This document shows positions 47,368 to 51,599 of a stretch of DNA of 64,000 bases, in pieces. This DNA comes from Escherichia coli (GTDB lineage Bacteria; Pseudomonadota; Gammaproteobacteria; Enterobacterales; Enterobacteriaceae), in NCBI RefSeq assembly GCF_030384885.1, contig NZ_CP128613.1; one strand, given 5' to 3'. A model generated the notes under the pieces. That model did not search any database and was not told the DNA's origin. It worked only from the letters and a program-made list of their open reading frames with translations. A program made the translations under genes and the position numbers. Position 1 is the stretch's first letter. Every line of letters starts with the position of its first letter.

Positions 47368-48885
47368 ATGTGCGGTATTGTCGGTATCGCCGGTGTTATG
47401 CCGGTTAACCAGTCGATTTATGATGCCTTAACGGTGCTTCAGCATCGCGGTCAGGATGCCGCCGGCATCATCACCATTGATGCCAATAACTGCTTCCGTT
47501 TGCGTAAAGCGAACGGGCTGGTGAGCGATGTCTTCGAAGCTCGCCATATGCAGCGTTTGCAGGGCAATATGGGCATTGGTCATGTGCGTTACCCCACGGC
47601 TGGTAGCTCCAGCGCCTCTGAAGCGCAGCCGTTTTACGTTAACTCCCCGTATGGCATCACGCTTGCCCACAACGGCAATCTGACCAACGCTCATGAGTTG
47701 CGTAAAAAACTGTTTGAAGAAAAACGCCGCCACATCAACACCACTTCCGACTCGGAAATTCTGCTTAATATCTTCGCCAGCGAGCTGGACAACTTCCGCC
47801 ACTACCCGCTGGAAGCCGACAACATCTTCGCCGCCATCGCCGCTACAAACCGCTTAATCCGCGGTGCGTATGCCTGTGTGGCGATGATTATCGGCCACGG
47901 TATGGTGGCTTTCCGCGATCCTAACGGTATTCGTCCGCTGGTACTGGGGAAACGTGATATCGACGACAATCGCACAGAATATATGGTCGCTTCCGAAAGC
48001 GTTGCGCTCGATACCCTGGGCTTTGATTTCCTGCGTGACGTCGCGCCGGGTGAAGCGATTTACATCACTGAAGAAGGGCAGTTGTTTACCCGTCAGTGCG
48101 CTGACAACCCGGTCAGCAATCCGTGCCTGTTCGAGTATGTTTACTTTGCCCGTCCGGACTCGTTCATCGACAAAATTTCCGTTTACAGCGCGCGTGTGAA
48201 TATGGGCACCAAGCTGGGCGAGAAAATTGCTCGCGAATGGGAAGATCTGGATATCGACGTGGTGATCCCAATTCCGGAAACCTCTTGTGATATCGCGCTG
48301 GAAATCGCGCGTATTCTGGGCAAACCGTACCGCCAGGGCTTTGTGAAAAACCGCTATGTTGGCCGCACCTTCATTATGCCTGGCCAGCAGCTGCGTCGTA
48401 AGTCCGTGCGCCGTAAACTGAACGCCAACCGCGCTGAATTCCGCGATAAAAACGTCCTGCTGGTCGATGACTCCATCGTGCGTGGTACCACTTCTGAGCA
48501 GATTATCGAGATGGCGCGTGAAGCCGGAGCGAAGAAAGTTTACCTCGCTTCTGCGGCACCGGAAATTCGCTTCCCGAACGTTTACGGTATCGATATGCCG
48601 AGCGCCACGGAACTGATCGCTCACGGTCGCGAAGTAGATGAAATTCGCCAGATCATCGGTGCTGACGGGTTGATTTTCCAGGACCTCAACGATTTGATCG
48701 AAGCCGTTCGCGCTGAAAACCCGGATATCCAGCAGTTTGAATGCTCGGTGTTCAACGGCGTCTACGTCACCAAAGATGTTGATCAGGGCTACCTCGATTT
48801 TCTCGATACTTTACGTAATGACGACGCCAAAGCAGTGCAACGTCAGAACGAAGTGGAAAATCTCGAAATGCATAACGAAGGATGA
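47368..48885 (+). CDS. purF: Amidophosphoribosyltransferase
   Basis: 505 aa, MCGIVGI N-terminal nucleophile. Confidence 0.96.
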
Positions 48886-48979: not shown

Positions 48980-49549
48980 ATGAAACGACTTATTGTGGGC
49001 ATCAGCGGTGCCAGCGGTGCGATTTATGGCGTGCGTTTATTACAGGTTCTGCGTGATGTCGCAGATGTTGAAACGCATCTGGTAATGAGCCAGGCCGCGC
49101 GCCAGACCTTATCTCTTGAAACGGATTTTTCCCTGCGCGAAGTGCAGGCGTTAGCTGATGTGACGCACGATGCGCGCGATATTGCCGCCACCATCTCTTC
49201 TGGTTCTTTCCAGACGTTGGGGATGGTGATTTTACCCTGTTCAATCAAAACCCTGTCCGGCATTGTGCATAGCTATACGGATAGCTTACTGACCCGTGCG
49301 GCAGATGTGGTGCTGAAAGAGCGTCGCCCGCTGGTGCTCTGCGTGCGTGAAACACCGTTGCACTTAGGCCACCTGCGTTTAATGACTCAGGCGGCAGAAA
49401 TCGGTGCGGTAATTATGCCTCCCGTTCCGGCATTTTATCATCGCCCACAATCCCTTGATGATGTGATAAATCAGACGGTTAACCGTGTACTCGATCAATT
49501 CGCCATAACGCTTCCTGAAGATCTCTTTGCCCGCTGGCAGGGCGCATAA
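48980..49549 (+). CDS. ubiX: Flavin prenyltransferase UbiX
   Basis: 189 aa. Confidence 0.95.
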   Translation: MKRLIVGISGASGAIYGVRLLQVLRDVADVETHLVMSQAARQTLSLETDFSLREVQALADVTHDARDIAATISSGSFQTLGMVILPCSIKTLSGIVHSYTDSLLTRAADVVLKERRPLVLCVRETPLHLGHLRLMTQAAEIGAVIMPPVPAFYHRPQSLDDVINQTVNRVLDQFAITLPEDLFARWQGA

Positions 49550-49730: not shown

Positions 49731-49746
49731 TGGCATAAGACCTGCA
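49731..49746 (+). promoter_or_regulatory. Sigma54-type promoter upstream of argT
   Basis: TGGCAT-AAGAC-CTGCA fits -24 GG / -12 GC spacing. Confidence 0.55.
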
Positions 49747-49814: not shown

Positions 49815-50597
49815 ATGAAGAAGTCGATTCTCGCTCTGTCTTTGTTAGTCGGGATTTCTGCAGCAGCTTCCAGCTACGCGGCGCTGCCGGAGACGGTACG
49901 TATCGGAACGGATACCACCTATGCACCGTTCTCATCGAAAGATGCCAAAGGTGACTTTGTTGGCTTTGATATCGATCTCGGTAACGAGATGTGCAAACGG
50001 ATGCAGGTGAAATGTACCTGGGTTGCCAGTGACTTTGACGCGCTGATCCCCTCACTGAAAGCGAAAAAGATCGACGCCATTATTTCGTCGCTCTCCATTA
50101 CGGATAAACGTCAGCAGGAGATTGCCTTCTCCGACAAACTGTACGCCGCAGACTCTCGTCTGATTGCTGCCAAAGGTTCACCGATTCAGCCAACGCTGGA
50201 TTCACTGAAAGGTAAACATGTTGGTGTGCTGCAGGGATCAACCCAGGAAGCGTATGCCAATGATAACTGGCGTAGCAAAGGCGTGGATGTGGTGGCCTAT
50301 GCTAACCAGGATTTGGTCTATTCCGATCTGGCTGCGGGACGCCTGGATGCCGCTCTGCAAGATGAGGTTGCTGCCAGCGAAGGTTTCCTCAAGCAACCTG
50401 CCGGTAAAGATTTCGCTTTTGCAGGCCCTTCAGTGAAAGACAAAAAATACTTCGGTGACGGCACCGGTGTCGGGCTACGTAAAGATGATGCTGAACTGAC
50501 GGCTGCGTTTAATAAGGCGCTTGGCGAGCTGCGTCAGGACGGTACCTACGACAAGATGGCGAAAAAGTATTTCGACTTTAATGTCTACGGTGACTGA
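49815..50597 (+). CDS. argT: Lysine/arginine/ornithine periplasmic binding protein
   Basis: 260 aa. Confidence 0.95.
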
Positions 50598-50666
50598 TAC
50601 GTCGCAGGGAAGCTGTACCTGATGGAATGATCATCATGGTGCACGCCAGGTTGTTGCACTATCGTG

Positions 50667-50703
50667 GTGCATTAAAATGCATACTTAAGCATTTTTAATG
50701 AAA
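50667..50703. promoter_or_regulatory. Candidate tandem ARG boxes (ArgR) upstream of hisJ
   Basis: GTGCATTAAAATGCATAC / TAAGCATTTTTAATGAAA, two 18-bp AT-core palindromes; resemblance to ARG box consensus. Confidence 0.45.
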
Positions 50704-50816
50704 AATAATACGTCTAACGGGGCGGGATATTTTGCCTTGATGGTCAATTTTATGGCACGATAAGTGTAACAAACCTGTAAATATTCCCTATAAAAAGACT
50801 GTCAGTTGAGGACATT

Positions 50817-51599
50817 ATGAAAAAACTGGTGCTATCGCTCTCTCTGGTTCTGGCCTTCTCCAGCGCAACGGCGGCGTTTGCTGCGATTCCGCAAAACATC
50901 CGCATCGGTACCGATCCGACCTATGCGCCATTTGAATCAAAAAATTCACAAGGTGAACTGGTTGGCTTCGACATCGATCTGGCGAAGGAGTTGTGCAAAC
51001 GCATCAATACGCAATGTACGTTTGTCGAAAACCCACTGGATGCGTTAATCCCATCCTTAAAAGCGAAGAAGATTGACGCCATCATGTCATCGCTTTCCAT
51101 TACGGAAAAACGTCAGCAAGAAATAGCCTTCACCGACAAACTGTACGCTGCCGACTCTCGTCTGGTAGTGGCGAAAAATTCCGACATTCAGCCGACAGTC
51201 GAGTCGCTGAAAGGCAAGCGCGTAGGCGTATTGCAGGGCACCACCCAGGAGACGTTCGGTAACGAACACTGGGCACCAAAAGGCATTGAAATCGTCTCTT
51301 ATCAGGGGCAGGACAACATTTATTCTGACCTGACTGCCGGACGTATTGATGCCGCATTCCAGGATGAGGTCGCCGCCAGCGAAGGTTTCCTCAAACAACC
51401 CGTTGGTAAAGATTACAAATTCGGTGGCCCGTCTGTTAAAGATGAAAAACTGTTTGGCGTAGGTACCGGCATGGGTCTGCGTAAAGAAGATAACGAATTG
51501 CGCGAGGCACTGAACAAAGCCTTTGCCGAAATGCGCGCTGACGGTACTTACGAGAAATTAGCGAAAAAGTACTTCGATTTTGATGTTTATGGTGGTTAA
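50817..51599 (+). CDS. hisJ: Histidine periplasmic binding protein
   Basis: 260 aa. Confidence 0.95.

Follow-up and report, generated by a model that had tools for sequence, protein, structure and literature searches.

The intergenic region upstream of hisJ carries paired ARG boxes. Reading these palindromes as binding sites of ArgR is correct and agrees with what is already known for Escherichia coli. We consider region 50666-50714 of the window, the whole 64-kb stretch of DNA that was analysed, to be the ArgR operator of the sigma-70 promoter of hisJQMP, with a probability of about 0.88. The experimentally defined pair of boxes most likely occupies an overlapping register, 50676-50714, and not the positions 50667-50703 at which the palindromes were first described. 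hisJQMP, a transport operon for histidine and arginine, has been a textbook-level member of the E. coli arginine regulon since 2006-2007.

Genomic setting

The window is E. coli chromosome, with the arrangement purF-ubiX-argT-hisJQMP. The genes around the site, taken from the list of open reading frames and from RefSeq annotation, are the following.

47368-48885, + strand: purF
48980-49549, + strand: ubiX
49815-50597, + strand: argT
50817-51599, + strand: coding sequence of hisJ, target of the regulation and first gene of hisJQMP (RefSeq annotation of identical or near-identical E. coli and of K-12)
up to 53869, + strand: hisQ, hisM and hisP

The argT-hisJ spacer measures 219 bp and the palindrome pair is located 114-150 bp 5' of the hisJ ATG. 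A 601-bp segment around the palindromes finds a match in 5425 of the 5426 complete E. coli genomes, with 2013C-4282 at 100%.

Two AT-rich 18-mers are found 5' of hisJ exactly as quoted in the first-pass annotation, GTGCATTAAAATGCATAC at 50667-50684 and TAAGCATTTTTAATGAAA at 50686-50703. The first contains a near-perfect palindrome, TGCAT-TAAA-ATGCA (50668-50681), and shows 2 mismatches to TGAATWWWWATTCA. The second contains the palindrome CATT-TTT-AATG. Their separation, initially given as about 1-3 bp, is exactly 1 bp (T50685) in the frames used at that stage, a value that is non-canonical for ARG boxes. In the canonical frame wnTGAATwwwwATTCAnw, the boxes become 50666-50683 and 50686-50703 and the spacer becomes 2 bp. 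The proposed tandem layout therefore stands in that the region scores as a tandem operator, but the frame of its first box has to be moved by 1 bp.

ARG-box scores in the window

A loose search of the 64-kb window with the IUPAC consensus TGAATWWWWATTCA, allowing up to 3 mismatches, returned 19 matches for 27 expected, hence no enrichment. Because matches at chance level prove nothing alone, a position weight matrix (PWM) was used instead. The K-12 control regions considered were those of carA, argF, argI, argA, argECBH, argG, argD, argR, artJ and artP. The matrix was symmetrised and derived from 16 classical K-12 ARG boxes, arranged as the classical tandems of eight biosynthetic and regulatory operators. 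artJ and artP did not enter the training set and served as independent positives. The null model consisted of 300 Markov-1 random 64-kb sequences. Four boxes, none of them assigned to a strand, describe the region.

50666-50683: ARG-like box A1, GGTGCATTAAAATGCATA, the first palindrome in the canonical frame; 16.3 bits, the highest-scoring single box of the window
50686-50703: ARG-like box A2, TAAGCATTTTTAATGAAA, the second palindrome, 2 bp 3' of A1; 10.0 bits
50676-50693: ARG box B1, AATGCATACTTAAGCATT, 12.4 bits, second in the window; in the published operator, most likely the box farther from the promoter
50697-50714: ARG box B2, AATGAAAAATAATACGTC, 8.9 bits; most likely the promoter-proximal box, following B1 after a 3-bp spacer, ttt

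The scores are not poor: the top single box of the window and its top tandems are all located here. A by-eye ARG-box call of this kind is thus open to quantitative validation. The A1+A2 tandem (50666-50703, 2-bp spacer) reaches 26.3 bits and is the top tandem of the window. The B1+B2 tandem (50676-50714, 3-bp spacer) reaches 21.3 bits and is the best tandem with a 3-bp spacer. A score of 26.3 bits was attained by none of the 300 random sequences and 21.3 bits by one of them. An alternative frame of A2 giving a 3-bp spacer (50687-50704) scores only 1.5 bits. For reference, the tandems of artJ, artP, argR, argD and argF score 24.3, 24.1, 26.0, 28.3 and 40.0 bits, respectively, and validated weak ARG boxes score 3.8-8.5 bits. 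The hisJ tandems are therefore on par with the validated weak operators artJ, artP and argR. No ARG-like tandem was found 5' of argT, in agreement with reports that place argT outside ArgR control.

Published ArgR control of hisJQMP

The first-pass annotation considered ArgR control of the histidine transport operon as plausible. It is in fact documented for hisJQMP by footprinting, in vitro transcription, ChIP-exo and derepression of a reporter. PMC6640053, which cites Caldara 2007, describes arginine-bound hexameric ArgR on two 18-bp ARG boxes of the hisJ control region with 3 bp between them; the pair is located 17 bp 5' of the -35 element. In that source, repression at hisJ is weak, was shown to be direct in vitro by footprinting and in vitro transcription, and does not operate by steric exclusion, a DNA conformational change being probable; argT is given there as not under ArgR. 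In vivo, Cho 2015 (PMC4381063) observed a single ChIP-exo peak-pair at hisJ together with a ChIP-chip peak, and gives a spacer of 2 or 3 bp for ARG boxes. With a PhisJ-gfp reporter, the ancestor strain showed 71-87 units and the argR deletion 195-212, a 2.6-fold derepression, about 205 vs about 80 units (PMC11341674). In the E. coli-yeast evolution experiment of that study, inactivation of argR was selected because it derepresses hisJQMP (PMC11341674). Among the full texts searched, only the 2008 Prosecutor paper contains the operator sequence; there, TGCATTGAAATGCA, the K-12 core of A1, is the ArgR motif match for hisJ in a scan with the RegulonDB motif (PMC2585105).

Two overlapping registers

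The B1+B2 register is located one helical turn 3' of the pair first described and overlaps it by 28 bp. The existence of two registers stems from a series of five half-sites at intervals of about 10 bp and from the self-complementarity of ATGCAT. The half-sites start at the following positions.

50668: TGCAT
50677: ATGCAT
50687: AAGCAT
50697: AATGAAA
50708: ATACG

Eighty Enterobacteriaceae hisJ loci were collected and 32 of them aligned. The best tandem ARG match of the 3.7-kb locus lies 90-230 bp 5' of hisJ in 57 of the 76 enterobacterial loci. The alignment of the 32 loci shows five conserved blocks.

50638-50643: GGTGCA
50678-50691: TGCATAsTTAAGCA, the B1 core, nearly invariant in the 28 non-Escherichia Enterobacteriaceae
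50698-50705: ATGmAAAA, the left half of B2
50730-50738: TTTTGCCTT
50752-50763: ATGGCACGATAA

The left half of A1 (50666-50676) is kept within Escherichia only. With 8.9 bits, B2 makes a poor box, and its conservation is limited to the left half. The near-invariance of TTAAGCA exceeds what the degenerate ARG consensus demands, and a second factor may share the site.

K-12 and the window differ by an A/G change at 50674 and by one 1-bp indel near 50650, where the GGTTTG run of K-12 is shorter by one T in the window. In K-12, A1 reads GGTGCATTGAAATGCATA with a G at box position 9 and scores 11.0 bits. The A allele of the window scores 16.3 bits, a gain of 5.3 bits. Of 5421 complete E. coli genomes, 5121 contain the exact K-12 74-mer; the 73-mer of the window occurs in 1 complete genome. 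The A at 50674 is a rare allele that, as scored by the PWM, strengthens the upstream ARG-like box. The consequence for the registers is that the upstream pair outscores the downstream one in the window strain (26.3 vs 21.3 bits), whereas the two are equal in K-12 (21.0 vs 21.3 bits).

In Salmonella enterica subsp. diarizonae and arizonae (loci L030 and L031), the best ARG box is AATCGATTTTTATGCAAA, with 13.8 bits, about 129-150 bp 5' of hisJ. The frame it occupies corresponds to 50687-50704, which scores poorly in E. coli; the shift goes back to the left half-site, where there is a 1-bp difference. The register preferred by ArgR may differ between genera.

Proposed position of the hisJ promoter

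The distance to the -35 element is part of the published description of the operator, and the promoter was placed as follows.

50732-50737, + strand: putative -35 hexamer TTGCCT of the sigma-70 hisJ promoter (TTTGCC invariant across genera; promoter-up deletions)
50756-50761, + strand: putative -10 hexamer CACGAT of the same promoter (weak match; 18 bp 3' of TTGCCT, within the invariant ATGGCACGATAA)

Transcription of hisJ would be expected to start near 50768-50769. Promoter-up mutations have been described at -66 and -78 (1-bp deletions), -86 and -87 relative to the hisJ start (PMC11341674). These sites map to 50751, 50739, 50731 and 50730, respectively. With either the -78 or the -66 deletion, the 18-bp spacer between TTGCCT and CACGAT is reduced to 17 bp, and in the case of -78 reporter activity was 11-fold higher (PMC11341674). 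The changes at 50730 and 50731 are T-to-A substitutions just 5' of the -35 hexamer, in the invariant TTTTGCC block. An alternative -35 element, TTGATG (50737-50742) combined with GATAAG, was rejected, as deletion of G50739 destroys TTGATG and yet activity rises 11-fold. A generic promoter scan of the spacer called no promoter, as expected because the hisJ promoter is weak.

Since the -78 and -66 deletions fall inside TTGCCT-CACGAT, the -35 element is positioned at 50732 and the edge of the operator at 50714. B2 ends at a distance of exactly 17 bp from TTGCCT (50732), which is the published distance. The operator would end 17 bp from the putative -35 element in the downstream register, vs 28 bp in the upstream one. 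From the quoted -35 distance, the promoter mapping and the conservation, we infer that the published pair with a 3-bp spacer is most likely 50676-50693 and 50697-50714.

Proposed mode of repression

The L-arginine-charged ArgR hexamer binds two 18-bp ARG boxes that face the same side of the helix, and bends the DNA. Two registers are offered to it, 50666-50683 with 50686-50703 (2-bp spacer) or 50676-50693 with 50697-50714 (3-bp spacer). It is the downstream pair that agrees with the published description and that shows conservation in Enterobacteriaceae. The operator would be located 5' of the -35 element, at about -92 to -54 from the expected start, and not over it. This position upstream of the -35 element would account for weak repression (about 2- to 3-fold) and for the absence of simple occlusion of RNA polymerase. 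A more probable route of repression would be the bending of the DNA, or an interference with the contacts that polymerase makes upstream.

Putative nitrogen-control and sigma-54-like elements next to the operator

An NtrC-type element adjoins the ARG boxes.

50655-50671, no strand assigned: NtrC-type palindrome TGCACTATCGTGGTGCA; no other position of the window matches TGCACYNNNNNGGTGCA without mismatch; the palindrome overlaps A1 by 6 bp

An NtrC ChIP-seq peak was assigned to hisJQMP by Brown et al. 2014 (PMC4066584). From its 920-bp distance to the argT peak and from K-12 coordinates, this peak is placed at about 50606-50686. A second, degenerate NtrC-type site is visible one to two turns 5' of TGCACTATCGTGGTGCA, where GGTGCA (50638-50643) is conserved.

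Further downstream, a sigma-54-like -24/-12 element, TGGCACGATAAGTGTA, is found at 50753-50768 and overlaps the putative sigma-70 -10 hexamer. Across Enterobacteriaceae, TGGCACGATAA does not vary. In the -12 part, most other genera have CTGCA and Escherichia has GTGTA, so that TGGCAC-N5-GTGTA lacks the -12 GC. With 2 mismatches, the sigma-54 motif is matched in the window about as often as expected by chance. The base changes at -12 suggest that a sigma-54 promoter may have been weakened or lost in Escherichia. Another such element, TGGCATAAGACCTGCA, is located at 49731-49746, 69 bp 5' of the argT ATG; it is consistent with the known sigma-54 promoter of argT.

Alternative explanations

The most serious alternative is that ArgR uses the upstream register, 50666-50683 and 50686-50703 with a 2-bp spacer, the downstream one being incidental. 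This register has the highest tandem score in the window strain (26.3 bits), and a 2-bp spacer has precedents in the best fit of the argR operator and in the 2 or 3 bp given by Cho 2015 (PMC4381063). The scan with the RegulonDB motif also chose TGCATTGAAATGCA for hisJ (PMC2585105). However, the spacer described in PMC6640053 is 3 bp and the distance to the -35 element 17 bp, while the upstream pair ends 28 bp from TTGCCT. Moreover, the left half of A1 is absent outside Escherichia, and in the 5121 complete E. coli genomes, out of 5421, that share the exact K-12 74-mer, A1 carries the G allele and reaches only 11.0 bits. We regard exclusive use of the upstream register as possible but rather unlikely. 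That the palindromes are NtrC enhancer sites of hisJ and not ArgR sites appears very unlikely. The exact palindrome TGCACTATCGTGGTGCA at 50655-50671 has GGTGCA in common with the first palindrome, a ChIP-seq peak exists at hisJQMP (PMC4066584) and a conserved TGGCAC-N5 element follows downstream. Yet the NtrC element covers just 5-6 bp of the palindrome site, ATGCATACTTAAGCATTTTTAATGAAA is devoid of NtrC consensus, and ArgR binding as well as argR-dependent expression are documented; the two functions are adjacent rather than alternative.

The palindromes could also function at the RNA level, either as a weak intrinsic terminator or as a 3' stabilising hairpin of the argT transcript. A 7-bp hairpin (AAAAUGC/GCAUUUU) is predicted at 50674-50695, with others at 50612-50646 and 50655-50671, and no strong argT terminator is seen elsewhere in the spacer. 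Against this, the fold has a z-score of only -1.8, the AT-rich stem holds just 2 G-C pairs and, by taking up its own U run, leaves no free U tail, the hairpin is neither called by the terminator scan nor matched in Rfam, and substitutions between genera at box positions 2 and 17 are not consistently compensated. A role in RNA is thus highly improbable. The terminator scan of the spacer gave a single weak match, at 50711-50724. The hairpin predicted at 50612-50646, directly after the argT stop, is an interrupted one of 14 pairs without a U tail. Given that the spacer contains no convincing intrinsic terminator of argT, some read-through into hisJ is possible. Finally, a chance AT-rich intergenic palindrome devoid of function would be consistent with the count of loose consensus matches (19 vs 27 expected), but has a negligible probability in view of a 26.3-bit tandem found in 0 of 300 random sequences, of the cross-genus conservation and of the published binding and regulation.

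Comparison with known operators

The closest relative of the site is the K-12 hisJQMP operator itself (Caldara 2007, J Mol Biol 373:251; Cho 2015, NAR 43:3079), at the same locus and with near-identical sequence. It also has two 18-bp ARG boxes 5' of the -35 element and mediates weak, arginine- and ArgR-dependent repression, but has a G at the centre of the upstream box where the window strain has an A. The artJ and artPIQM operators resemble it in combining one good and one weak ARG box, 3 bp apart, before a transport gene for a periplasmic binding protein. According to PMC6640053, their boxes overlap the -35 element and exclude RNA polymerase, unlike the hisJ boxes located 17 bp 5' of it, and repression of hisJ is weaker and follows another mechanism. 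A position 5' of the -35 element and not over it is atypical for ARG boxes, but it is the one published for hisJ. In the argR autoregulatory operator, the ARG boxes are 2 bp apart, as in the upstream register, and the total is similarly low (26.0 bits); it is however located at the argR promoter, and the 2-bp register at hisJ is a candidate. Finally, an NtrC palindrome about 100 bp 5' of TGGCAC-N5 recalls the NtrC enhancer and sigma-54 promoter of the glnAp2 type and the dhuA region of Salmonella hisJ. The differences are that the NtrC element adjoins the ARG boxes and is not the palindrome pair, and that the -12 GC reads GT in Escherichia.

Implications

Beyond the routine identification of an ArgR operator, the analysis points to the likely register of the boxes, to the overlap with an NtrC site and to a rare allele that improves the upstream box. 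These details are relevant only to modelling of ArgR occupancy or of arginine-nitrogen cross-talk. The upstream ArgR position shares 6 bp with the promoter-proximal NtrC site. One may speculate, although we hold it to be quite unlikely, that the operator is a dual-register site, open to the hexamer at either of two positions one helical turn apart, in which the rare A allele would favour the upstream position, so that arginine-bound ArgR could also act as an anti-activator of NtrC and would repress hisJQMP more tightly than in K-12. If true, this dual-register arrangement would link arginine and nitrogen signals at hisJ.
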